From Kiritimatiellia bacterium (GTDB taxonomy: Bacteria > Verrucomicrobiota > Kiritimatiellia > RFP12 > UBA1067), in contig JBMNFY010000017.1 in assembly GCA_050949565.1 (NCBI GenBank), positions 544,001-608,000 on the forward strand: a stretch of 64,000 bases of DNA, read 5' to 3'. The position numbers and the translations under genes are program-made. The notes under the pieces were generated by a model. It was given only the letters and a program-made list of their open reading frames with translations, was not told where the DNA came from and made no database searches. Positions 11,055-63,847 of this stretch are shown here, piece after piece. Each line of letters opens with the position of its first letter. Position 1 is the stretch's first letter.

Positions 11055-11510
11055 AAACCATGAAACACATGAAACTTCATGAAAGGTTGAGGGCATGAAA
11101 GAAAAGATCACGGCGGTCTATGAAGAGGAGTGCTATCAGATACGCGGGGCCTTGTATGACGTGTACACGGTGCTCGGAACTGGTTTCTCGGAAGAGGTCT
11201 ACCAAGAGGCGCTGGAGAAAGAATTTGCCATGCGCCATATCCCTTTTGTGTCACAGCAAGTCCTGCGATTTCATACAAAGGGGAATGGCTTGCAAAGACC
11301 TACAAAGCAGATCTGGTCTGTTACGACAAAATCATTCTCGAATTGAAAGCTGTCAAAGCCCTGCTTTCCGAGCACGAGGCGCAACTCATCAATTACCTTA
11401 AAGCAACCGGAATGCGTCTGGGCTTTCTCGTCAACTTTTGTCATTTTCCCAAGGCAGAGATACGCACATATGTAAACTAATTTCATGAAGTTTCATGTGT
11501 TTCATGGTTT
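11055..11510. mobile_element. CATGAA-IR element 1 carrying a frameshifted GxxExxY gene
   Basis: Perfect 30-bp inverted repeats at 11055..11084 and 11481..11510 enclose only the RBS and ORF. Confidence 0.75.
11095..11480 (+). pseudogene. GxxExxY protein (PD-(D/E)XK-like), 1-nt frameshift near 11266
   Basis: GFSEEVY motif; CTGCGATTT here versus CTGCGGATTT in the intact copy at 21123. May be a sequencing error. Confidence 0.85.
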
Positions 11511-14600: not shown

Positions 14601-14630
14601 GACAAAGGGACACTGCTGAAGATCCGCTGA
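11614..14630 (+). pseudogene. Large secreted multi-LamG (concanavalin A-like) protein with two apparent frameshifts (~13978, ~14050)
   Basis: Repeated FT(V/A/L)E(G/A)W...WRHVALVYD...WxLY(V/L)DG...FxGxxDxxR units continue across ORFs 11593..14310, 13841..14083 and 14097..14630. Ends GTLLKIR*. Confidence 0.8.
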
Positions 14631-14636
14631 TGAGGG

Positions 14637-15063
14637 AACCATGAAACACATGAAACTTCATGAAAGTTTTTTTGAGGGCATTGCTCGGGTTTGTTTAACC
14701 ACAGAGAACACAGAGAGCACAGAGTTTTTTGAGGGGGCGGGGCTGGCCGCAAATTTATTGCGACCACCTAGTGGTCGCAATGATGAGTGTAAAAGCACTG
14801 CTCGGTTGTTTCACGCGAAGGCGCGAAGACGCGAAGGTTGGAGGGCGAGTGTCCCCACGAGCCGCCTTCCGCTGAGCGGAAGGATGGGAGGGACGAGCGT
14901 CGCTCGTCCGCGGGCAAGCAGACGCTTGCCCCTCCCTGCGCTTCGCAAGCCAGATGACACGAGATGGAGGGCGGCATCTGGGTGGCGCACAAAATTGAAT
15001 TGGGGTGCGGGCTCCGCTAAAAAGGAGTTCTTGATTTCATGAAGTTTCATGTGTTTCATGGTT
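14637..15063. mobile_element. CATGAA-IR element 2 (427 bp, non-coding, packed with repeat modules)
   Basis: 29-bp IRs at 14637..14665 and 15035..15063; about 5 substitutions versus 16273..16699. Confidence 0.8.
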
Positions 15064-15120: not shown

Positions 15121-16272
15121 ATGAAAAAAACACTTGTTGTTTCGACTGTTAGCCTCTTGTTTGCTGCGGCTGCTTTCTGCCAGCCGCCTAAGGCCCCGCC
15201 ACCGGAGCATGCCGGTCCGCCGCTGCCGCGTCATGCAGTCACCAACCGCGCTTTCACTGGCATCTCCAGCCTGGCGGTCGCACCCAACGGTCGGCTCTGG
15301 GTAACCTGGTATGCCGGCCACACGCCGGGCGAGGACCGCAATAACTATGTGGTGCTCGCTACCAGCGGTGATGGTGGCGCGACTTGGAAGGAACTGCTCA
15401 CTGTGGACCCCGACGGCGGGGGGCAACGTCGCACCTTCGATCCCGAAGTGTGGATTGCGCCGGATGGTCGGCTACGCTGGATATGGAGCGACCGTACCAT
15501 GCCGCACAGCGGTGTGTCGTCCGACGCGATCTGGATGATCGTGCTCGACGATCCCGCGTCGGAAAGCACTGCATGGCACCCGCCGGTATATGTCACGCAG
15601 GGCGTGATGATGTGCAAGCCCATCGTGCTCTCTTCAGGCGAGTGGGCGCTGCCGGTCTGTACGTGGTATTCGGAGAACAGTTCGAAAATGGTGGTCTCCA
15701 CTGACAACGGCAAGACGTGGTCGGTGCGCGGCGGCGCGAACATGCCTAGGGAAGACCGCTGTTTTGACGAGCACATGTTTGTGGAACGCAAGGACGGCTC
15801 GATCTGGTGTCTGTCGCGCGCCAAATCCGGCATCCGCGAGGCGGTCTCGACCGACCGTGGCGCAACATGGTCGCCGCTGGAGCCGTCGCCGATCCAGCAC
15901 CCGTCGGCACGCTTCTTCATCACGCGGCTGCTCTCCGGCAACCTGCTGCTTGTGAAGCACGGTCCGATTGAAAGGAAGACCGGTCGTTCGCATCTCATGG
16001 CCTTTGTGTCGAAGGACGATGGCCGGAGATGGGAGGGCGGCCTGATGCTCGATGAGCGGAACGGTGTCTCCTATCCCGACGGCCAGCAGGCGGCGGACGG
16101 CACGATCTACATCACATACGATTTTGACCGTATCGGCAAACGCCATATCCTCTTCTCCACCTTCCGCGAGGAGGACGTGCTGGCCGGCAAGCCGGTTTCC
16201 GGCGCGGTACGTCTGCGCCAGATCGTGAGCGAGGGATCGGGTGGTGTCAAACGGTCTGAGGCCGCTAAATGA
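15121..16272 (+). CDS. Secreted sialidase-family (BNR/Asp-box) protein
   Basis: Asp boxes SGDGGATW, STDNGKTW, STDRGATW, SKDDGRRW; VSYPD; signal peptide from ATG 15121. Confidence 0.88.
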   Translation: MKKTLVVSTVSLLFAAAAFCQPPKAPPPEHAGPPLPRHAVTNRAFTGISSLAVAPNGRLWVTWYAGHTPGEDRNNYVVLATSGDGGATWKELLTVDPDGGGQRRTFDPEVWIAPDGRLRWIWSDRTMPHSGVSSDAIWMIVLDDPASESTAWHPPVYVTQGVMMCKPIVLSSGEWALPVCTWYSENSSKMVVSTDNGKTWSVRGGANMPREDRCFDEHMFVERKDGSIWCLSRAKSGIREAVSTDRGATWSPLEPSPIQHPSARFFITRLLSGNLLLVKHGPIERKTGRSHLMAFVSKDDGRRWEGGLMLDERNGVSYPDGQQAADGTIYITYDFDRIGKRHILFSTFREEDVLAGKPVSGAVRLRQIVSEGSGGVKRSEAAK

Positions 16273-16699
16273 AACCATGAAACACATGAAACTTCATGAA
16301 AGTTTTTTTGAGGGCATTGCTCGGGTTTGTTTAACCACAGAGAACACAGAGAGCACAGAGTTTTTTGAGGGGGCGGGGCTGGCCGCAAATTTATTGCGAC
16401 CACCCAGTGGTCGCAATGATGAGTGTAAAAGCACTGCTCGGTTGTTTCACGCGAAGGCGCGAAGGCGCGAAGGTTGGAGGGCGAGTGTCCCCACGAGCCG
16501 CCTTCCGCTGCGCGGAAGGATGGGAGGGACGAGCGTCGCTCGTCCGCAGGCAAGCAGACGCTTGCCCCTCCCAGCGCTTCGCAAGCCAGATGACACGAGA
16601 TGGAGGGCGGCATCTGGGTGGCGCACAAAATTGAATTGGGGTGCGGGCTCCGCTAAAAAGGAGTTCTTGATTTCATGAAGTTTCATGTGTTTCATGGTT
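16273..16699. mobile_element. CATGAA-IR element 3 (427 bp direct duplicate of element 2)
   Basis: Begins at the base after the sialidase stop; same length and content as 14637..15063. Confidence 0.8.
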
Positions 16700-16710
16700 T
16701 AAGGAGAGGA

Positions 16711-18766: not shown

Positions 18767-20899
18767 ATGAGAGGGATGATGATAATCGCGGCCATAACGA
18801 TCATGCTGTGCGGGTTGGCACCGCTTCATGCACAGCCGCGCGATACGCCCTTGCCGGGACGCGGTGCCGCACTCTTCGTGCAAGGGATTTTTGAGCAGGA
18901 TACGTTTACCGAAGGTGCGCGACTCTTCCCGGACCGCACTTACACAGTGGCTGAAGCGCCCGCTTGGTTGCGCGGGTCGACCTTCCTGCGCGCAAGCATT
19001 GATGGCAACCTTACCGTGACGGTCAAGCAAGCCGGTGTGTTGACGGTGATTACGGCCGATCCCGCCGATCCGCTCGCCACGCATTCGCAATGCACGCGTC
19101 TGGAGGAACTGGGGTTTGTCTGGGTCAAGGCACCGGCGACCTTTCAGCTTTTCGGCAAAGCGGCTCACGACATCAGCCGCACTTATCAGAAACTGGTCGC
19201 GCAGGACGAAACGTTCAACTTTCCCAAGTGGACGGTGTTCGCCGGTTTCTCCGAGGTGACCGGGCCGCCGCTGCCGTTCGACCTTCTGCCAGAGCGCGGC
19301 GAGCGACTTTACAACGGCATCGAACTTTCAACCAACTGGCCGCCGCGCACCGTGAACACGACGAACTGGGCGCCGATGGCCGTGCCGTATCTGACCGCGC
19401 CGCCGGAGTTGATCCATATTGATGTGGGGCGGCAACTCTTTGTGGACGACTTCCTGATTGCGACCAGCACGTTGCAGCGCGTCTTCGGTATGCCTGAGAA
19501 GTACACCGGCAACCCGGTGCTGCGTCCAGAGACCGAACTGGAGTTGAACGGCATCCGGAACGCCGCAGCCGTGCCGAAGGGTGGCGGGCTCTGGTGGGAT
19601 CCCTACGAACGGCTGTTCAAGCTCTGGTATGAGGCGGGCTGGATCCACACCATTTGTTACGCCACCAGCACAAACGGTCTGCACTGGGAGCGGCCGAAGT
19701 TGGACGTGGTGCCGGACACCAATCAGGTGCTGCCGCCGGACTTGACACCAGACTCCTGGACCGTGGTGCCCGATTGGGAGGCGACCGATCCGCTGCAGCG
19801 CTATAAAATGTTTATGCGCGGGCCCGGCGGGACAATGCCCGGGGTGAGTATGACTTCGGCGGATGGCATTCACTGGGTGAATCGTGTAGTTACTGGCCAC
19901 ACCGGCGATCGTAGCACCATGTTCTATAATCCATTCCGGCGCAAATGGATCTACAGCCTGCGGAGCGGCTGGCGCGGACGGTCACGCGATTATAGGGAGA
20001 GCGACAACTTCCTGCGCGGTGCTTCTTGGAGCGCGGCGGATACCGTGCGTTGGTTGGCCGTGGATGAGAAGGACCCCAAGGATCCGAAAATCCAGCGGGT
20101 GCCGCAACTCTACAACTTTGACGCGGTAGCCTACGAGAGCATCATGCTGGGTGCATTTGAGATTCACCACGGACCGGAGAACGACGTCTGCATGAAAGTC
20201 GGTTTGCCGAAAATCACGGAGTTGAATTTCGCCTACAGCCGCGACGGGTTCCACTGGTCGCGGCCTGACCGCAGAGCGCACATCCGCGCGGAACGTTGGG
20301 GCAGCGGCAAATGGGATACCGGCTATGTGCAGTCGCTCGGCAATCTTTGCACGATTCAGGGCGACAAGCTCTGGTTCTATTACTCCGGATTTCAAGGCGA
20401 CACCAATCGCCTCAGCGGCGACTGGTTGCAGAACGGCATGTACGACAACGGTGCCATGGGCATCGCCTTCTTGCGGCGCGATGGCTTCGCGGCTATGCGG
20501 GCGGGAGACGGTGGTGGAGAACTCGTCACGCGGCCATTGCTCTTCAGCGGTGCGTGTGTGTTTGTGAATGTGGCGTGTCCACAAGGCGAGTTGCGCGTGG
20601 AGGTGCAGGATGTCGAAAGCGAGACGGCCATTCCGGGTTTTGCGCTGGCCGAGTGCCGCCCCGTCTCCGTCGACAGCACCCTGCACCGCATCACCTGGCA
20701 AGACGCCGACACCGTCAGGGCTTTGCGTGGCCGACCGGTCCGTTTCCGTTTCGCATTGTCCAACGGCGCGCTGTACGCTTTCTGGGTCAGTCGTGATGAA
20801 AGCGGTCGCAGCGACGGCTATGTAGCGGGCGGCGGACCGGGATACACCGGGCCGACTGACACGGTGGGGGCTGCCGCGTTGTTGCAAGATGAACCATGA
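18767..20899 (+). CDS. Secreted five-bladed beta-propeller glycoside hydrolase-like protein (GH32/GH43-clan-like) with the same N-terminal module as 16711
   Basis: GRQLFVDDFLI, CYATSTNGLHWERP, SADGIHW, AYSRDGFHW, LRRDGF; its stop codon lies inside the next IR. Confidence 0.75.
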   Translation: MRGMMIIAAITIMLCGLAPLHAQPRDTPLPGRGAALFVQGIFEQDTFTEGARLFPDRTYTVAEAPAWLRGSTFLRASIDGNLTVTVKQAGVLTVITADPADPLATHSQCTRLEELGFVWVKAPATFQLFGKAAHDISRTYQKLVAQDETFNFPKWTVFAGFSEVTGPPLPFDLLPERGERLYNGIELSTNWPPRTVNTTNWAPMAVPYLTAPPELIHIDVGRQLFVDDFLIATSTLQRVFGMPEKYTGNPVLRPETELELNGIRNAAAVPKGGGLWWDPYERLFKLWYEAGWIHTICYATSTNGLHWERPKLDVVPDTNQVLPPDLTPDSWTVVPDWEATDPLQRYKMFMRGPGGTMPGVSMTSADGIHWVNRVVTGHTGDRSTMFYNPFRRKWIYSLRSGWRGRSRDYRESDNFLRGASWSAADTVRWLAVDEKDPKDPKIQRVPQLYNFDAVAYESIMLGAFEIHHGPENDVCMKVGLPKITELNFAYSRDGFHWSRPDRRAHIRAERWGSGKWDTGYVQSLGNLCTIQGDKLWFYYSGFQGDTNRLSGDWLQNGMYDNGAMGIAFLRRDGFAAMRAGDGGGELVTRPLLFSGACVFVNVACPQGELRVEVQDVESETAIPGFALAECRPVSVDSTLHRITWQDADTVRALRGRPVRFRFALSNGALYAFWVSRDESGRSDGYVAGGGPGYTGPTDTVGAAALLQDEP

Positions 20900-21112
20900 A
20901 ACACATGAAACTTCATGAAAAGGCGGGGTGTGGTTAGGGAACCATGAAACACATGAAACTTCATGAAAAGGCGGGGTGTGGTTAGGGAACCATGAAACAC
21001 ATGAAACTTCATGAAAAGGCGGGGTGTGGTTAGGGAACCATGAAACACATGAAACTTCATGAAAAGGCGGGGTGTGGTTAGGGAACCATGAAACACATGA
21101 AACTTCATGAAA
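20892..21112 (+). repeat. Tandem array: five left IRs separated by an identical 19-bp spacer (48-bp period)
   Basis: Units start at 20892, 20940, 20988, 21036 and 21084; spacer AGGCGGGGTGTGGTTAGGG. Confidence 0.95.
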
Positions 21113-21538
21113 GGTGAGGGGTATGAAAGAAAAGAGCGTGATGGTTTATGAAGAGGAGTGTTATCAAATACGCGGGGCCTTGTATGAGGTATATACGGTG
21201 CTCGGGACTGGTTTCTCGGAAGAGGTTTACCAAGAGGCACTGGAGAGAGAGTTTGCTGTGCGCCATATCCCGTTTGTATCACAGCAAGTCCTGCGGATTT
21301 CATACAAAGGAGAATGGCTCTCAAAGACCTACAAAGCAGATCTGGTCTGTTACGACAAAATCATTCTCGAATTGAAGGCTGTCAAAACCCTGCTTCCTGA
21401 GCACGAGGCGCAACTCCTCAATTACCTTAAAGCAACCGGAATGCGTCTAGGTTTTCTCGTCAACTTTTGTTGTTTTCCCAAGGCGGACATACGCACGTAT
21501 GTAAACTAATTTCATGAAGTTTCATGTGTTTCATGGTT
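21084..21538. mobile_element. CATGAA-IR element 5 carrying an intact GxxExxY gene
   Basis: Left IR 21084..21112; right IR 21510..21538 starts directly after the stop codon. Confidence 0.78.
21123..21509 (+). CDS. GxxExxY protein (PD-(D/E)XK nuclease-like)
   Basis: LGTGFSEEVYQEAL, ADLVCYDKIILELKAV, HEAQLLNYLKATGMRLGFLVNF; 128 aa. Confidence 0.93.
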   Translation: MKEKSVMVYEEECYQIRGALYEVYTVLGTGFSEEVYQEALEREFAVRHIPFVSQQVLRISYKGEWLSKTYKADLVCYDKIILELKAVKTLLPEHEAQLLNYLKATGMRLGFLVNFCCFPKADIRTYVN

Positions 21539-39821: not shown

Positions 39822-40175
39822 GGTCTAACGCGGGCGGAGCCCGCAACCCAAGTTCATTAGTTAATTAGTTTGTCCGGGAGCGCACTGCCCCAAAAAACCT
39901 TCGTGCCTCTGTGAGAGAAAAACAGAACCATGAAACACATGAAACTTCATGAAAATTGAAGCCTTTCCTTTGCGTTCTCTGCGTTCTTTGCGGCCATTTA
40001 TGTAGCCATGCCTATTCGATTCGCGACAATTCGCATCATTCGCGGTTAAAAATCCGTCGCCATGCCACCCAAAAACATCTGCGTAATCTGTCATCTGTGG
40101 ATGTAAAAAACCGAGCCATGCCCCAAAAACCTCTGCGTCTCTGCGCCTCTGCGTTAAACAAACAATTTGTTTTTG
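39822..40175 (-). repeat. Modular array of triple-repeat units, inverted homolog of 60733..61122; contains a lone CATGAA IR at 39926..39954
   Basis: The reverse complement reads CGCAGAG x3, CAGAT x3, GCGAAT x3, CGCA(A/G)AG x3, IR, CACAGAG, CTAATT modules, with GGCATGGC(TCGG) linkers. Confidence 0.85.
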
Positions 40176-57586: not shown

Positions 57587-60500
57587 TCATCGTTTGGGCG
57601 CCTGCTGACGCGACGCATCCAATCCCATGTTCACTAGTTTCTCCAATGGCCCGTGGAGATTCAAGTTCAAATCCACCGGCGCGGGCCATGCCTTGTCGTT
57701 AGATTTGCCGACCAACTTGATCCGCAATGTCCCCTCGCCGTCCGCCCGCGGCTCCAAATCCAGCTTGAGCATGTTGAAATCCAAGTCGCTCAACGCTTGG
57801 GCCAACGGCTTCTGCACATCGCCCTTGATTCCCGAGCGCTCCAGCAGTGCCCGCATCTGCTCGCTGTCCTCAAGTCGCAACGAACCGCCCTGCCCCGGCA
57901 ACGAATAGAGGAAACCGGGCGCAAGCCGTACATGGCCCTCTTTGATCCTCACCGGGAAGCGGCCGAACAACACCCCTTCCATCCGCCCCTTGAAAGGCAT
58001 GACCATCATCAGCGCCTCACCCAGATCAATGCGGTCGGCATACACCACAAACTCATCGCTCGGCCGCACAAACTCCCAGTTCACCGAGTAGGCATTGAGA
58101 CTGCCCTTGCACCAGCCGACCTCGGCTCGGTCCACAAAGATCCCGCGGCGCGTCACCTGAAAATCAACACGCCCTTGGTCGAAGGACACGTTTCCGACCT
58201 TCGCATGAGTAAACGCAACAAAGGGCTGTTCTATTGTCCGGAAAAAGACACCCACCGAAAACGGTATGTCAGCGGTGACGCCACGCACCTCGGCTTGTTC
58301 CTTGCGCAACCAGCCCTCATTGACGCGTAGCCGACCGATCACATGCGGACGCACCCCCAAGAGACGCATGTTCGCCTCGGCGGCCACACGTCCGCCGACC
58401 TCGACCCCGGGCACCTTGTCGCGGACCAGCGCCATAAGCGCATCTGTCGGCTCCAACTCGGTTTCAGGCAGCGTGACCGTAAGCCGCATCGCACGCGGAT
58501 CACGTAACGGGATTTGCGCCTCCGTCTGCACACGCAGCGCGCTCTCCGACAGCCGCAGCGCGATTTGCGCCGTGACCGTATCGTCATCAGCCGACCATTT
58601 CATACCGTCCATCTCGACCGCGATGCCCTGCGCCTCCAACCGCTGCCAAGCCAGCCGCTGCTCCGGTCGGAAGGCCAGTCCGTCCGCCGCCGACCAATTG
58701 AACGGCAGCTCCATGGAGGCCTGCTCCAGCCGTGCCTGAGAACCGCTCTCGGCCCAGGCGTTACTGACGGCAAGCGTCACGTCTGCCGCCCATTGCGGAT
58801 GTGCGATGCGTTTGAACTCCGGAATCTCAAAGCGCGCACCCAGACTCTCCGCGCCGGCCGTCAACGTGCGATTCGTCTCCGGCCCGGTCTGCGCCTTGAC
58901 CTCACGCGCCCACACTGCGCCGCGCGCTGCCAGACTGTCGGTGCTGTAACGGATTTCGGCCGCGCCGCCCAACCGTCCCGCCACCTGCGCCTGCTGCTGC
59001 GTCCAAGCCGTCGGCGCGTCAGGCAGTGTCAGCGCGATGCGCCACACCGGATTGGATGACAGGCTGGACACCACGGCCTCACCCTCGAAACGCACGCGCC
59101 CCTCGTCTAGCGTCAGCGGTAATTTGGGCAGCACGCGCGCTTCACCCAGATGCCCCGTGAACGTACCACGCGCCTCCGCATAAGGCGGCCGCGTCGTCAG
59201 TTTCGTATTAACACTCCCCGTGAGGGTGAACGCATCGCGAAAGACATACCCATCTTGCAACGTGATCTCGCAACGCACCGCGCCCGGCTTGGAGGATTCA
59301 ACATCGGCCTCGCCGACCACCCGCACCGCTTTGGCGCCAACATAAGTACCGGAAAGTGGCGCGGACGAGCGCAACGCCTCAGCCGCGTACTGCACGCGAC
59401 CGTCCCACGAGCCGCCCGGCGGACACTGCGCTTCAGCATCAACCTTCAACGTGCCGCCGTCGGAAAAAAAGATCGGCACGAGCGGCAACACACGCGGCAA
59501 CAGCGTCGCAATCGAGCGTCCCGGCAGATCGCTCTCCAACGAGGCGTTCAGCCGCTGCCCCGCCGCTTCCTGCTGCCACCGCCCCGAGCCCCGCAGACTA
59601 AGCATCCGCCCGCGTTCTTGCGATGTTCCAAGTCCCTGCCCCCAAGCAAACCCGGACAGACCGGCATTGACCCGAAACTGTACATCCCGCGGCGTGCCCG
59701 ACGCCTCGATCCGCGCACTCTGCAACACCGCATGCGCCTGACGCGACGGCAGGTCGAACCGGCTGTTGCGCCCGAGCGCCAGCGAGAGTTGAAACGGCTG
59801 GACGTTGGTCCACGCCACCACCGCAAACTCGCCCCGCGCTGTCAGACTGGCACCCGCCGCTGGCTCAACCGCGCAGTGCGACAGCGCGTCGGGAGCCAGT
59901 TGACGCGCAACCGCCAGGCCGCCGGCGAGATCAGGGAAAGCCAACTCCGATGTGAGCGTGACCGCGCCTTTCGCAAGATCCGCGCTGCCGACCAGCCTCA
60001 CTTGGGACAGCATACCCGTGCTCGATCCCTCGCCCTGCACCTGTCCCCAGAAGCGGTAGCGCCCGTCGGCTTCGCCGACACCGCCGCCTGAAAAAGCGAG
60101 GCACGCCAGCGGCTCGGCCGGATCAGACGGCGTCGCCACCGCGATCCGCACATCGTGCAGGGTCGTCATCCAAAACGAAAAGGGCGGCGCATCAGACACC
60201 GGCCGCGCGCGGTCGGAACGGTCAGATGTCGGCAACAGAGGCTTCAGACGCTCAGCTAATGGCGACACCCACGCACCATCTTGAACCAGCAGGGTCGTGC
60301 GCACGCCTTGAACGTGAATACGTTCGACATGGCGTCGCGGCAAATCGTCCGGCGAATAATGCAGGTCGATCTGGTCGATCGCCAGAAGCGGGACCGGCCC
60401 CTCGCCCCAGTGCACGTCACGCAACGCCAGCCGCCACGGCGAGAGCTTGGTCAACCGGAAAGAGACATCATCGATACCCTGACGCGCCAGCACCGCATGC

Positions 60501-60634
60501 ACCGCGCGCGTCGCGATATGGATACGCCGCAACCAGAGCGTCGCCGCTGCGAGCATGACACTAACCGCCACCACGCCCACAACAATAGACACCCCACGAA
60601 CCACGCGCTTGAATACGATAACAGGGGAAAACAT
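57587..60634 (-). CDS. ydbH: YdbH-domain AsmA-like intermembrane lipid transport protein
   Basis: N-terminal TM; C-terminal G.L.GRFPV, ALSDLDFN.L, PVDLNLNLHG; operon context. Confidence 0.8.
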   Translation of the reverse strand: MFSPVIVFKRVVRGVSIVVGVVAVSVMLAAATLWLRRIHIATRAVHAVLARQGIDDVSFRLTKLSPWRLALRDVHWGEGPVPLLAIDQIDLHYSPDDLPRRHVERIHVQGVRTTLLVQDGAWVSPLAERLKPLLPTSDRSDRARPVSDAPPFSFWMTTLHDVRIAVATPSDPAEPLACLAFSGGGVGEADGRYRFWGQVQGEGSSTGMLSQVRLVGSADLAKGAVTLTSELAFPDLAGGLAVARQLAPDALSHCAVEPAAGASLTARGEFAVVAWTNVQPFQLSLALGRNSRFDLPSRQAHAVLQSARIEASGTPRDVQFRVNAGLSGFAWGQGLGTSQERGRMLSLRGSGRWQQEAAGQRLNASLESDLPGRSIATLLPRVLPLVPIFFSDGGTLKVDAEAQCPPGGSWDGRVQYAAEALRSSAPLSGTYVGAKAVRVVGEADVESSKPGAVRCEITLQDGYVFRDAFTLTGSVNTKLTTRPPYAEARGTFTGHLGEARVLPKLPLTLDEGRVRFEGEAVVSSLSSNPVWRIALTLPDAPTAWTQQQAQVAGRLGGAAEIRYSTDSLAARGAVWAREVKAQTGPETNRTLTAGAESLGARFEIPEFKRIAHPQWAADVTLAVSNAWAESGSQARLEQASMELPFNWSAADGLAFRPEQRLAWQRLEAQGIAVEMDGMKWSADDDTVTAQIALRLSESALRVQTEAQIPLRDPRAMRLTVTLPETELEPTDALMALVRDKVPGVEVGGRVAAEANMRLLGVRPHVIGRLRVNEGWLRKEQAEVRGVTADIPFSVGVFFRTIEQPFVAFTHAKVGNVSFDQGRVDFQVTRRGIFVDRAEVGWCKGSLNAYSVNWEFVRPSDEFVVYADRIDLGEALMMVMPFKGRMEGVLFGRFPVRIKEGHVRLAPGFLYSLPGQGGSLRLEDSEQMRALLERSGIKGDVQKPLAQALSDLDFNMLKLDLEPRADGEGTLRIKLVGKSNDKAWPAPVDLNLNLHGPLEKLVNMGLDASRQQAPKR

Positions 60635-60683
60635 GGGGCATAGTATACCCCATAAGTGCGCCCGTTGGGCACTGGTTTTTGCA

Positions 60684-60730
60684 GCCCGCCAGCCAGCGGC
60701 CAGCGCAACGCTGGCCGCTGGTTGGCGGGC
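60684..60730. repeat. 22-bp GC-rich hairpin
   Basis: GCCCGCCAGCCAGCGGCCAGCG-CAA-CGCTGGCCGCTGGTTGGCGGGC. Confidence 0.8.
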
Positions 60731-60732
60731 CA

Positions 60733-61122
60733 ACAAAAAACAAGTTGTTTAACCACGAAGACACGAAGGGCACGAAGTTTTTGGGGCACCGTTCGGGTTT
60801 TTTGCATCCACAGATTACAGATTACGCAAATTTTTTAGGGGCAGGGCTCGGGTTTTGGGAACCACGGAATACACGGAACACACGGAAAGGCACTGCTCGG
60901 TTGTTTCACGCGAAGACGCGAAGGTTTTTTTGGGGCACTGCTCACGAATAGCCGCAAAGAACGCAAAGAGGGATATTGGGGTTTTGGCATGACTCGGCTT
61001 TTTCTCTCACAGAGGCGCAGAGGACACGGAGGTTTTGGGGGATAACGCGCCCCCAGACAAACTCATGCACTAATTAACTAACGCACTAATTAACTTGGGT
61101 TGCGGGCTGTGCCCGCATTAGA
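60733..61122 (+). repeat. Modular array of distinct triple-repeat units separated by GGCAYNGCTCGG-like linkers
   Basis: Modules CACGAAG x3, CAGATT x2-3, CACGGAA x3, CGCGAAG x2, CGCAAAG x2, CAGAG x3, CTAATT; linkers near 60783, 60838, 60889, 60932 and 60986. Confidence 0.88.
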
Positions 61123-61607
61123 TTTATCGTCAGGTACCAAGCTGTGTGGCACGGGCATCTTGCCCGTGTGGCGGCGTGAAACGCCGCCCGGACGAGCGAC
61201 GCTCGTCCCTCCCGGCGCTCCGCGAGCCCGAATCGCAGCACTGGAGGGCGAGTGTCCCCACGAGCCGCCGTCCGCGCAAAATTTAAACACCCAACGCTCA
61301 ACTTTCCGTGGTCTAAACACCTGTCCCTTTGTCGTCCACGAAGGCACAAGGGACACGAAGGTTTTGGGGGATAACGCGCCCCCAGACAAACTAATGCACT
61401 AATTAACTAACGCACTAATTAACTTGGTTTGCGGGCTGTGCCCGCATTAGATTTACCGTCAGGTGCCGAGCTGTGTGGCACGGGCATCTTGCCCGTGTGG
61501 CGGCGTGAAACGCCGCCCGGACGAGCAACGCTCGTCCCTCCCGGCGCTCCGCGAGCCCGAATCGCAGCACTGGAGGGCGAGTGTCCCCACGAGCCGCCGT
61601 CCGCGCA
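61022..61607 (+). repeat. ~256-bp duplication (329-bp period) made of REP-like palindromes
   Basis: 61022..61278 is nearly identical to 61351..61607; includes GGCACGGGCATCTTGCCCGTG, GGACGAGC..GCTCGTCC and the GGAGGGCGAG REP. Confidence 0.9.
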
Positions 61608-61813
61608 CAGCGCGGCTCTTGTCACCGCACTCCAAATTTTCCGCCGCGCCATGAGCGGCACAACAATCCTGTCAATCCTGTCAATCCTGTCAAAAAAAAC
61701 ATCCTGCTTTTCACCAGAAACGCATTATCTTCGCACACCTCTGTCACGAACCGATTACTTTGGCAAACTGAGCGTCGCAGGTCGAATGTCGCCGGTCGCG
61801 GGGCAGGCGCCTC

Positions 61814-63682
61814 TTATGGTTTTATCCGTTCGCCGGTGTCGGGATTATAGCGGACGGTCTCGACTGAGCATTGGCCGTCCACCGTTGTCCGGATGGTCAG
61901 AACACCCTCGAGGGAGTCATCGTCTGCCGACACGCGCGCGAGTTCACGCCAGGGGCGCGTGCCGTCCTCGCGGAACGAAACGCAGACCGATGAGACAGGC
62001 TCGGAAGAACCGAGCAGGTACTCGCCGGGCACGCCGGGGCGGCGGAACACGAGACCGGTGCCGTCCCGGAGCATTTCAAGCGTGAAGAGCGTCTTTCCGG
62101 AGGGGGCGTTGTAGTGCGTCGTCTCGCCCAGTTGCTGCGGGAAGTAGCCGGTCCGTGGATACCCGGGCACGTTCCCGCAGACGAGGAAGGCGTTCTCCGT
62201 GATGCGTCCTTTCCCGTCGAGACGGTAATGCCCCACGTTGTTTTCCTTCCAGGCGTTCCACATCAGCATCACATGGAAGTGCGGCGGCGCGTCCACATGG
62301 CCGTTCGGGAAGTTGGACTCAAACCCGAAAAGCTGCACAAACGCGCCTTCGGTCGCGTTCGTCTCAGCGAGTCCGGCGCGCCGGAACAATTCGCGCGCGG
62401 CGAACAGCCAGTTGTTTTGCGCACGGACCTCCGCAGCGGGATAGGGCCTGTCGCGGTACAGACCGTGCTGAACCCCCTCCACATTGTGGAAGACGCAGAT
62501 GCGGATCGCACCCTCACTCCACCCCGTGGTGAAACCGGTGGGCGGCTTCGTCGCTGTGGGCGTGAAAAGGACACGGTCGCCGTCGCGCACCATATTCTTC
62601 GCCCCATACACGGTTTTCACCGCGACACCCGGCCAGACGAGTTCCACGCGCGGTGCGGCGAGGCCGCGCCCGGGGGCCTCGATCGTGAAATAATACTCGC
62701 GCACGTTGAGCCCCGTTTTCGCCTCATCCCCTTCCACCACCCTCCATGGTGCGGGCACCTTGATCTCGGGTGCGGGAGTCGTGCCGTGCGCGGCCTTCGT
62801 CACCTTCGAGGCATAGCGCGTGACGAACGGCGTCACGGCCGTGGCGATCTGCGCCTCACCATTCTTAAAATAATTATCGAAGAATGCCGTGATGATCGGC
62901 TTCACCATGGCGTTGAACTCGCCCGAGTGGCCGCTGGTCTTCTCCTCGGCCGTGCGGATCTCGATGTAGGTGTGCGCCACCTTGTTCGACGTAAGGATGT
63001 TGTGCAACTCGCGGTTCGCGGACAGGAAGAAGTCTGATGTGCCCACGGCCATGATCAGGTTCACATCGCCGTTCTTCAGTTTCATGGCCTCTGTAACCAC
63101 AGAGTGCTCCCGCCAGCGTTCGGGGAATTCATCACGCGGGCCAAGGCGTTTGGCGATGTCCCAGCTATTCGGAAAATTCCACAGGTTCATGCCTCCGTAG
63201 ATACTGCCGATCGCGCCGAAGAGTTCCTTATGTCTGAATCCGAGCCAGCAGGCGCCGTGGCCGCCCATGGATCCGCCCATGATCGCGCGATGCGCCCGGT
63301 CGCGGATGACACGGTAGTGCGCATCGATCCATGGCACGAGTTCCTTTGTTACATGGGTTTCGTAACGATACGACGGGTCGATAGGCGAATCGAACCACCA
63401 GCTCGTCTTTCCGCCGTCGGCGCAGACGAACAGGAATTCGTGGCGGTCGGCCAGAAACTTCAGTTCTTCCGTCGCGTACGTGCGGTAGTTGCCGCCTGCG
63501 CCATGCACCACGTAGACCGTACTGAACGCCATGCCCGGATCGGCGGCGTACTTGTCCGGCAAGACCACACAGGCCGGGATGTCCTTGCCCATCGACGGGC
63601 TCGGAACCCGGATCTCCTCAATCACCGCGCCTTGCGTAGCCGCCGCGAACGCGACCACGGAAAAAATCAAAAGTCTCCTCAT
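61814..63682 (-). CDS. Secreted esterase (alpha/beta hydrolase, CE1/FrmB-like) with a C-terminal domain of unknown function
   Basis: Signal peptide, VPSPSMGK, VVHGAGG, RAIMGGSMGGHGA; C-terminal GHVDAPPHFH. Confidence 0.85.
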   Translation of the reverse strand: MRRLLIFSVVAFAAATQGAVIEEIRVPSPSMGKDIPACVVLPDKYAADPGMAFSTVYVVHGAGGNYRTYATEELKFLADRHEFLFVCADGGKTSWWFDSPIDPSYRYETHVTKELVPWIDAHYRVIRDRAHRAIMGGSMGGHGACWLGFRHKELFGAIGSIYGGMNLWNFPNSWDIAKRLGPRDEFPERWREHSVVTEAMKLKNGDVNLIMAVGTSDFFLSANRELHNILTSNKVAHTYIEIRTAEEKTSGHSGEFNAMVKPIITAFFDNYFKNGEAQIATAVTPFVTRYASKVTKAAHGTTPAPEIKVPAPWRVVEGDEAKTGLNVREYYFTIEAPGRGLAAPRVELVWPGVAVKTVYGAKNMVRDGDRVLFTPTATKPPTGFTTGWSEGAIRICVFHNVEGVQHGLYRDRPYPAAEVRAQNNWLFAARELFRRAGLAETNATEGAFVQLFGFESNFPNGHVDAPPHFHVMLMWNAWKENNVGHYRLDGKGRITENAFLVCGNVPGYPRTGYFPQQLGETTHYNAPSGKTLFTLEMLRDGTGLVFRRPGVPGEYLLGSSEPVSSVCVSFREDGTRPWRELARVSADDDSLEGVLTIRTTVDGQCSVETVRYNPDTGERIKP

Positions 63683-63847
63683 TTCGTCTCTCCTTTGCCG
63701 AGCCACTCGGCGGCCTCTTTCTGAATGTCGCGCCAATCCATCACGCCTTCACGAAAGATTTCGCGCGCGATCAGGATGTCCGCAAACGTTTTGCCTTCCG
63801 GGACAGTCGGTCGCGATGCGTTGAGCCCTCCTGCCGCGGGGTCGAGT

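Follow-up and report, generated by a model that had tools for sequence, protein, structure and literature searches.

What kind of element is the closely packed run of short tandem repeats at positions 60736-61121 of the 64,000-nucleotide stretch of Kiritimatiellia DNA analysed here (the window)? Seven different heptamer-repeat modules follow one another in this intergenic space, most of them joined by a recurring linker. The initial annotation had likened the layout to a CRISPR array and proposed either a collection of half-sites for genes of the GxxExxY family or successive insertions at a preferred target motif. We consider it probable that 60736-61121 is instead the longest copy of a small, non-coding shell resembling a miniature inverted-repeat transposable element (MITE)—a modular mobile repeat of the BOX kind, whose units shuffle at a shared linker. 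This reading draws on the fixed ends and graded sizes of the shell, a sibling copy that is mobile, arms identical to the ends of GxxExxY gene cassettes, the inner position of the linker in those cassettes, its restriction to one lineage, and differences in unit content between strains. We use "arm" for one heptamer-repeat module, "shell" for an element with fixed left and right ends, and '>' for the left-arm sense; the genome analysed (G000) comprises 4.66 Mb in 21 contigs, which labels such as C6, C7, C12, and C17 denote.

Re-reading of the sequence bore out the module and linker positions originally claimed within 60733-61122, all seven modules lying in a 1.18-kb spacer between a YdbH-like and an esterase gene. 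On the plus strand, the element opens with the left inner end of the shell, AAAAACAAGTTGTT with a TAAC lead-in (60736-60753), a motif that opens 16 paired shells in G000 and forms the same end in other genera. Arm 1 (three copies of CACGAAG, 60754-60777) is followed by a T-run and linker 1 (GGGGCACCGTTCGGG, 60778-60797, core 60785-60796); arm 2 (two copies of ACAGATT plus ACGCAAATT, with a CC lead-in, 60808-60832) by a T-run and linker 2 (GGGGCAGGGCTCGGG, 60833-60852, core 60840-60851); and arm 3 (three copies of CACGGAA, 60863-60887) by linker 3 (GGCACTGCTCGG, 60889-60900), which has no T-run and abuts the A-ending arm. Next come arm 4 (two copies of CGCGAAG with a lead-in of its own, TTGTTTCA, 60909-60924), a T-run with the degenerate linker 4 (GGGGCACTGCTCACG, ending ...CTCAC, 60925-60946, core 60934-60945), arm 5 (two copies of CGCAAAG, 60952-60972), linker 5 (GGCATGACTCGG, 60986-60997), and arm 6 (CACAGAG/CGCAGAG/CACGGAG, 61008-61032), all likewise on the plus strand. 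Five copies of a GGCAYNGCTCGG-like core separate the first six modules; a T-run precedes each core except after the A-ending CACGGAA arm, and a T-rich lead-in follows each. Four of the arms and copies of the linker (linkers 1 to 4 by the repeat search) were recovered independently, with Tandem Repeats Finder and with a separate repeat search. The module design listed in the initial annotation holds, save that modules 4 and 5 have two core copies rather than three.

The right-hand part of the element is built differently. Modules 6 and 7 are joined without a linker, by a T-run, a GGGGG-ATAACGCG-CCCCC mini-hairpin, and the spacer AGACAAACTCAT (61033-61066, plus strand), a constant inner part of the shell that recurs in nine of the 16 shells, so that the constant linker originally described holds for the first six modules only. 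Module 7 (61067-61094), which reads as a GCACTAATTAAC-type arm on the plus strand, lies on the minus strand; because it is the reverse complement of a ATTAGTGC arm, six modules and not seven share one orientation. Such inverted ATTAGTGC arms adjoin the right end in nine of 16 shells, where a CAGAG-type arm like arm 6 also occupies the last '>' position in nine of 16, and ATTAGTGC arms stand before a linker in the '>' sense at two other loci. The element closes with the recurring right end TTGGGTTGCGGGCTGTGCCCGCATTAG, which has a 7-bp hairpin of its own (61095-61121, plus strand). The six co-oriented modules are purine-rich on the plus strand, and arms 1-6 are unpaired, with no gene or hairpin loop enclosed between paired arms; a profile search of 60600-61800 returned no match to TIGR04256 (GxxExxY) or TIGR02436 (four-helix-bundle genes).

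The ends of this element recur as a unit. We found 16 pairs of the left end and a right end (TTGGGTTGCGGGC...GCCCGCRTTAG) on seven contigs of G000, at end-to-end distances of 84, 92, 101, 106, 107, 108, 108, 109, 169, 171, 228, 321, 323, 346, 350, and 359 nt, the last being the copy at 60736-61121. These shells contain between one and six '>' arms: the four shortest (84-107 nt) are single hairpins, four of 106-109 nt consist of one CGCAGAG arm, the mini-hairpin, and an inverted ATTAGTGC arm, two of 169-171 nt hold one further unit with a linker, and those of 228-359 nt hold several units. A second large shell in the window (39839-40174, minus strand, 323 nt between ends) has the units CGCAGAG, CAGATG, CGCGAAT, CGCAAAG, inverted CATGAA, and CACAGAG. 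Outside the inner ends, (G)TTAGTGCCTTAC... opens 14 of the 15 other shells and copies finish with ...GCCCGCRTTAG; the left terminal 12-mer occurs 47 times with at most one mismatch. By eye, the two ends are only loosely inverted with respect to each other (TTAGTGCC...CAAC versus GTTG...GCCCGCATTAG).

At C6:184031, a 169-nt shell in G000 is replaced by 12 nt in the congeneric genome G001, with flanks 83-87% identical. The G001 sequence resumes at CGCTAG|GAG, exactly after TAG and exactly where this sibling copy ends with ...GCCCGCATTAG, and (T)TAG stands on both sides of the shell. The comparison shows a clean presence/absence difference and suggests a (T)TAG target duplication; a 3-4 bp duplication of a (C/T)TAG target resembles that of IS5-group insertion sequences. 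Around C17:1494870, where a second empty site was sought, the contigs of the relatives are interrupted at the element. In each of the 11 CACGAAG loci retrieved from G009, G014, G001, G007, and G006, these ends enclose a single plain CACGAAG hairpin, and the shell is therefore a MITE-like element common to several genera, whereas the expanded, linker-bearing interior is a novelty of the lineage of G000 and its closest relatives found, G004 and G002 (91-99% nucleotide identity in matching stretches; G004 assembly 78% complete, G002 only 56%). Like MITEs, the shell is short, apparently non-coding, and dispersed in many copies with common ends; unlike them, it has no terminal inverted repeats that match a resident transposase-bearing insertion sequence among the 17 DDE_Tnp_1 loci checked.

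The arms themselves lead to a gene family. G000 encodes six GxxExxY genes (TIGR04256/PF13366, PD-(D/E)XK) and about nine four-helix-bundle genes (TIGR02436), and both kinds are enclosed between short tandem repeats arranged as inverted runs. Two of the GxxExxY genes lie within the window: one detected by profile search and intact (21156-21494), and one of the CATGAA type (11128-11471), frameshifted into two hidden Markov model matches (profile positions 2-58 and 48-115) with its inverted arms intact. Module 3 has 24 nt of contiguous identity with an arm at the GxxExxY gene C17:1382786, and module 5 shares 19 identical nt with the arms at the GxxExxY gene C7:32940, which one inverted pair of that module encloses. 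A survey of the same genus (13 GxxExxY loci fetched from five genomes, G001-G005) extended these matches: the genes are bracketed by CAGATT/CAGATG arms in G005 (L035) and G001 (L041), by CACGAAG/CACAAAG arms in G003 and G004, by CGCAGAG arms in G001, G003, and G004, by CACAGAG arms in G003 and G005, and by CAGGATT arms in G003, one locus in G002 being without arms. The proposal that each module is a half-site for a GxxExxY paralog is thus upheld for modules 3 and 5 in G000 and, at the level of core families in the genus, for modules 1, 2, and 6; for modules 4 (CGCGAAG) and 7 (CTAATT), no gene-bracketing partner was found in G000 or among the genus loci. The search for inverted partners that the initial annotation had suggested returned GxxExxY-enclosing pairs for modules 3 and 5, and none within 1.5 kb in G000 for modules 1, 2, 4, 6, and 7. 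Taken together, these matches support reading the modules as single arms, or half-sites, of the inverted repeats that bracket GxxExxY genes—two of the seven within G000 and some three more by core family in the genus. They share with GxxExxY hairpin cassettes the lead-in, the two to three 7-mer copies at a period of 8-9 nt, and identical arm sequences; they differ in being single, mixed, and co-oriented, in their lineage-specific linker and own-ended shell, and in enclosing no gene.

Several further observations concern such cassettes. At G001:C141:1081-1284 (L041), a GxxExxY gene has an in-frame internal deletion (profile positions 30-79 missing) with its CAGATG arms kept, possibly an intermediate between gene-bearing and gene-less cassettes. 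Within the spacer under study, 3.3 copies of CAATCCTGT followed by an A-run (61664-61693) form an inverted CAGGATT arm, the type that brackets a GxxExxY gene in G003 (L042). G000 also has a second repeat class whose period is strictly 7 nt and whose copy number varies (AGGATTT, AGGAGTT, GAGCGTT, CTGCGTT, and others, 56-124 arrays each), which brackets four-helix-bundle genes and not GxxExxY genes.

Where does the linker come from? Gene-less CACGGAA hairpins read left arm-GGCATGGCTCTG-right arm in five of six copies printed, the linker core being their loop; at a G004 locus (L033), a T-run and GGGGCATTGCTAAGG lie between the arm and the start of a GxxExxY gene; and the loop of CACGAAG hairpin elements in other genera (TTTTTTAATGACTCGCC in G009 and also in G001) has the 8-mer ATGACTCG in common with linker 5. 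From these three observations, the linker corresponds to sequence on the inner, cargo side of the left arm, where a loop or a gene would lie. Its pattern, GGCAYKGCTCGGNTTT, has 77 occurrences in G000, 31 in G004, 14 in G002, and one in G006; G001, G003, G005, and four other-genus genomes of the family (G009, G010, G013, and G014) have none, and in a sample of 200 further genomes of the class it was present as a single copy in 10 and absent from 190. A reversed control pattern occurred 0-1 times. In the genomes compared, the motif thus appears restricted to the young sub-lineage of G000, G004, and G002. Tandem arms in G003 and G001 are joined by plain GGTTTTTTTAAC, a T-run without linker; given this and the confinement of the linker, the arms are old and widely distributed, and the 15-nt core was recently added within the T-run.

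Arms and linkers are abundant well beyond this locus. Triple repeats of 7-mers at a period of 7-10 nt number 2119 in the genome versus 203 after block shuffling, and those of 8-mers 1282 versus 27. Counting both strands, the exact linker core is present 121 times in G000, where a base-composition calculation predicts about 12, and with up to two mismatches it lies within 45 nt downstream of 126 of 382 one-sided T-run arms and upstream of 96 of 382, compared with 1.9% of 20,000 random 45-nt windows. In keeping with the initial annotation, then, the linker is strongly enriched beside arms genome-wide and some modules do flank genes as inverted repeats. With at most about 15% mismatch, modules 1-7 have 38, 5, 81, 56, 16, 7, and 21 genome copies, respectively, and the arrays draw on a repertoire of roughly ten arm types. 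We counted 104 co-oriented arrays—two arms were detected in 74 of them, three in 21, four in five, and five in four—using a strict detector that scores only two of the seven arms at 60736-61121; arrays also occur inside the CATGAA-armed elements at 14629-15062 and 16269-16700. Stretches of 57 to about 180 nt of the array at 60736-61121 match other arrays at 67-94%.

The internal grammar of these arrays is regular. Linker orientation follows arm orientation in 123 clusters (at least two arms and one linker), and unit order is non-random: CACGAAG precedes CACAGAG in 14 cases versus two in reverse, CACAGAG precedes CGCCAAG in 18 versus three, CACGAAG tends toward first place, and CGCCAAG or a CAGAG-type arm tends toward last. 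Lead-ins are specific to the arm that follows, the core being succeeded by GTTTGTTTAAC, TTGTTTCA, ...ATCC, or TTGGAAC according to the next arm type, and TGTTTCA preceding 23 of 38 CGCGAAG arms; this specificity places the exchangeable shared sequence in the linker. The central dinucleotide of the linker is associated with both the upstream and the downstream arm (none of 2000 shuffles reached the observed value), although copies are not independent and the linker can be assigned to neither side. Array orientation shows no tie to flanking genes (32, 33, 25, and 13 arrays in the four classes, based on crude gene calls and counting tandem copies repeatedly), nor do linkers on the 1.97-Mb contig show a clear replication-strand bias (56 '>' and 66 '<' in the negative-skew part, 13 and 7 beyond it, with one-mismatch noise included).

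Strain comparisons, suggested originally as a way to detect polar gain of modules, revealed different unit content. Relative to G002, G000 carries at C6:30751 an additional CACAGAG unit together with a duplicated stretch of about 170 nt, and at C12:15110 the modules in G000 and G004 are entirely different between flanks 94-98% identical. Perfect multi-unit tandem amplifications occur as well. Directly upstream of the GxxExxY gene at 21156-21494, a perfect 48-bp repeat of a CATGAA arm plus spacer is present in 4.6 copies (20891-21112), and a single inverted arm follows the gene (21509-21536). Many identical 143-bp units lie at C17:778,500-781,500, the whole tract of tandem three-arm blocks (CACAGAG, CACGAAA, and inverted CATGAA) extending over C17:778,369-781,536, and further amplifications are found at C5:12434-13501, C18:19574-20779, C17:732,000-733,250, and C17:1,052,876-1,055,226. 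Compared with a G002 contig (G002:C157, L026), G000 has at 16254-16700 a copy of the 14629-15062 element; this copy has replaced a CATGAA element of smaller size, together with some 400 nt at the 3' end of the BNR-repeat gene upstream. The alignment identifies 16269-16700 as a repeat-mediated truncation of that gene, which continues in G002.

How might such an array form? In its simplest state, found in this and other genera, the shell holds one hairpin—left arm, loop, and right arm—with arms that are the triple-heptamer ends of GxxExxY nuclease cassettes; in the copy at 60736-61121, a run of left-arm units takes the place of the loop and right arm. Each unit consists of an arm-specific T-rich lead-in, an arm, a T-run, and the loop-side sequence GGCAYKGCTCGG, which is the linker, and some 30 nt of T-run, linker, and lead-in would be common to every unit. 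Recombination at this common stretch, unequal or ectopic, together with slippage during replication, would then add, remove, and exchange units. Such recombination would account for the strict co-orientation, the constant-linker, variable-module appearance, the differences between strains, and the tandem amplifications, with no need for selection.

Several points weigh against this mobile, recombining shell. Recombination at the linker is deduced rather than observed; the one-unit difference at C6:30751 could equally be an insertion; and a single 15-nt linker adjoins at least ten arm types that are older than itself. At the locus itself, the closest relative differs by a synteny break and not by a clean empty site: in G004, the left gene is 93-95% identical, similarity ends at about 60683, and the remaining 458 nt of the contig are, by eye, without arm or linker. 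As the esterase gene was not found in the 78%-complete G004 assembly, insertion and rearrangement are indistinguishable here. The copy at 60736-61121 moreover lacks the left terminal part TTAGTGCCTTAC..., having a palindrome (60684-60730) in its place, and its own insertion is for that reason only presumed. No mobilising insertion sequence with matching ends was found at the 17 loci checked out of 29 DDE_Tnp_1 matches, none having shell termini within 1.8 kb. Overlap between the 104 arrays and the 16 recognisable shells is limited to five arrays, and the shell accounts for the locus at 60736-61121, not for the array habit overall. Finally, the array-bearing element at 14629-15062 is about 96-97% conserved between G000 and G002, equal to its flanking genes, which is compatible with constraint.

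An alternative history, which we judge unlikely, is serial site-specific insertion, whereby hairpin or cassette elements would enter a resident linker in one orientation and later lose their right halves, long nested palindromes being unstable. It accords with the position of the linker where cassettes carry cargo, with the frequent ending of arrays in one complete hairpin or one inverted arm, with homogeneous multi-layer arms on both sides of the GxxExxY gene C15:17355, and with the whole-unit difference between G000 and G002. On the contrary, if targets had been duplicated at each step, adjacent linkers should resemble one another, but across 39 unique adjacent pairs they are barely more alike than random pairs (identity 0.77 versus 0.73; same central dinucleotide in 26% versus 19%) and so show no sign of duplicated targets; the successive insertions at a preferred motif envisaged in the initial annotation gain no support from this comparison. 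Mirrored arrays (>A >B ... <B <A) with the same arm types are present in none of the 123 clusters, and the scheme requires repeated, exact loss of right halves.

We consider it improbable that the arrays are decayed tandem cassettes, in which each unit would be an arm plus an extremely shrunken GxxExxY gene, with a ribosome-binding site and start codon on the 5' side and the last codons and TAA on the 3' side. TTGAGGGCAT does occur both in a linker (14668-14690) and around the start of the frameshifted GxxExxY gene at window position 11100, a stop codon is directly followed by a direct-orientation arm in two cassettes, and the internally deleted G001 gene would fit. These similarities, however, span 8-10 nt; no reading frame is kept, since T-run and G-run lengths vary; intact tandem GxxExxY gene arrays were seen in none of six genomes examined; and the joint in linker-free relatives is a bare T-run.

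We give still less credence to a functional library of half-sites, in which single arms would be kept because they serve several GxxExxY cassette types as landing pads, as antisense partners, or as decoys at the DNA or RNA level. The cassette types of the arms have cognate genes in G000 or the genus, and the conservation of the 14629-15062 element in G002 would suit a retained function, as might an RNA-library contig of 304 nt (X16) that spans 60806-61090 with 10 differences and three gaps, its strand, ends, and level being unreadable and DNA carry-over possible. Six RNA runs contain the stretch, all as assembled contigs, and most pieces on the array derive from other copies. But the array is absent at the locus in the closest relative, module content is wholly different at an orthologous site, only six GxxExxY genes face hundreds of arms in G000, and the abundant modules 1 and 4 are without an inverted pair or nearby GxxExxY gene that we could find. 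Neither strand of 60733-61122 folds better than shuffled sequence (z = -0.28 for plus and -0.68 for minus), the whole window has no Rfam match at gathering score, and orientation is untied to flanking genes; the landing pad, decoy, and antisense RNA roles first proposed thus find no support in folds or RNA families. Most speculative of all, and barely credible to us, is a genome-kept archive in which a mobile shell gathers one arm per GxxExxY cassette type that has resided in the lineage and the transcript or single-stranded DNA serves as a multi-specific decoy or guide restraining cassettes or nucleases—if true, this would follow the logic of a PIWI-interacting RNA cluster or a CRISPR array built from transposon-end half-sites instead of spacers.

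Returning to the modular shell, other searches for function in its surroundings were likewise negative. Between 60500 and 61900 we found no sigma-70-like promoter site and three terminator-like sites versus 2.1 expected, which is no excess. A sigma-54 promoter in the linker was rejected by eye, the GG and GC being 5 nt apart rather than the 10 of the consensus, and a coding reading of the array is ruled out by the alternating 8- and 9-nt periods and the varying lengths of T- and G-runs. The array is most likely without a dedicated cellular function. Incidental effects are likely in the form of genome rearrangement, as at 16269-16700, and possibly include altered expression of neighbouring genes.

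Comparison with known systems places the element among modular repeats. CRISPR arrays consist of near-identical direct repeats of about 23-55 nt and unique spacers of similar length, whereas here the constant part is a 12-15-nt degenerate core with 0-3 changes among its five copies and T-runs of variable length, and the variable parts are multicopy, internally tandem-repeated members of a repertoire of about ten arm types with 5-81 copies each; the initial CRISPR-like reading finds no support in this comparison. Repetitive extragenic palindromic (REP) sequences, the bacterial interspersed mosaic elements they build, and the REP doublets forming hairpins (REPINs) occur between genes as short, abundant repeats that combine a few motif types and short linkers into mosaics, and are tied to a small family of REP-associated tyrosine transposase (RAYT) genes that they flank. 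Abundance, intergenic mosaics, and one associated small gene family are points of likeness, but REPs are single imperfect palindromes of 20-40 nt, whereas each arm repeats a heptamer directly in tandem, with purines prevailing on one strand and without self-complementarity, and the associated genes encode PD-(D/E)XK proteins and not Y1 transposases (no search for a RAYT gene was made). From structured or sponge RNAs of the CsrB/RsmZ kind, the array differs in matching no curated family and in folding no better than shuffled sequence.

The closest architectural parallel is with BOX elements of Streptococcus pneumoniae and Streptococcus suis, which have boxA and boxC ends around a variable number of tandem boxB modules (plus boxD in S. 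suis), span 67-637 bp, and are reported to have terminal inverted repeats, target duplications, and strain-variable module numbers, with unequal crossover among the mechanisms named (Croucher et al. 2011, PMC3049150). The likeness is one of architecture only—a small, non-coding, dispersed composite with fixed ends and an internal module number that varies between copies and strains—and BOX arrays repeat one internal module type, compared with about ten arm types, a constant linker, and modules that are ends of a protein-coding cassette family here. The available part of a study of Geobacter metallireducens describes paired tandem-repeat "global regulator binding sites" of classes 1-3, which are intergenic and multicopy, with 3-5 hepta- to nonanucleotide repeats mostly in opposite-strand pairs at variable distance (Aklujkar et al. 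2009, PMC2700814). A CACGGAG-like arm is complementary to the consensus of class 2, TCTCCGTS[Y], but in that part the pairs are read as regulator sites, and no co-oriented mixed arrays, linker, or link to a gene family is described (PMC2700814). What is new here is the mixed co-oriented arrays, the lineage-specific linker, and the size series of the shell; the kind of element, a modular MITE, is known.

The surroundings of the array hold further repeats. The spacer is bounded by the YdbH-like gene on the left (57587-60634) and the esterase gene on the right (61814-63736), both on the minus strand. Immediately left of the element, where other copies have their left terminal hairpin, the GC-rich 47-nt palindrome at 60684-60730 (unstranded, with 22-nt arms that are 95% complementary) belongs to a separate REP-like family: in relatives from several genera and families it turns up many times over, on both strands and with 84-96% identity, the repeated stretch being 45 nt. 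To the right, 60998-61278 and 61327-61607 form a direct duplication with 94% identity and a period of 329 nt, which comprises a chain of short GC-rich hairpins (TGCGGGC.., CACGGGCATCTTGCCCGTG, GGCGGCGTGAAACGCCGCC, and GGACGAGCGACGCTCGTCC); within it, at 61327-61451 on the plus strand, lies a partial, shorter second copy of the shell with a CACGAAG-type arm, the mini-hairpin, an inverted ATTAGTGC arm, and the right end, whose motif is at 61424. The CATGAA-armed elements are filled by related blocks of hairpins (14840-15030 and 16480-16660), as are two of the shells (321 and 346 nt).

GxxExxY/PDDEXK_3 genes are among the commonest uncharacterised small gene families in bacteria. In the literature, judged partly from titles and abstract openings, we found no description of repeat-bracketed GxxExxY/PDDEXK_3 cassettes or arrays, of Kiritimatiellia MITEs, or of equivalents among ribosomal RNA intervening sequences. 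In G000, the ends of these cassettes lead a life of their own, with well over a thousand occurrences, a mobile shell, and mixed arrays formed via a young 15-nt joint. The CRISPR-like appearance of the arrays is no evidence of an adaptive system. Their practical consequences are that they break metagenome assemblies and cause rearrangements, one BNR-repeat gene in G000 having been truncated. The young linker offers a dated, lineage-restricted marker for the spread and recombination of repeats, and the arms offer defined half-sites for testing nuclease recognition; the finding serves chiefly as an entry point to the biology of GxxExxY cassettes.

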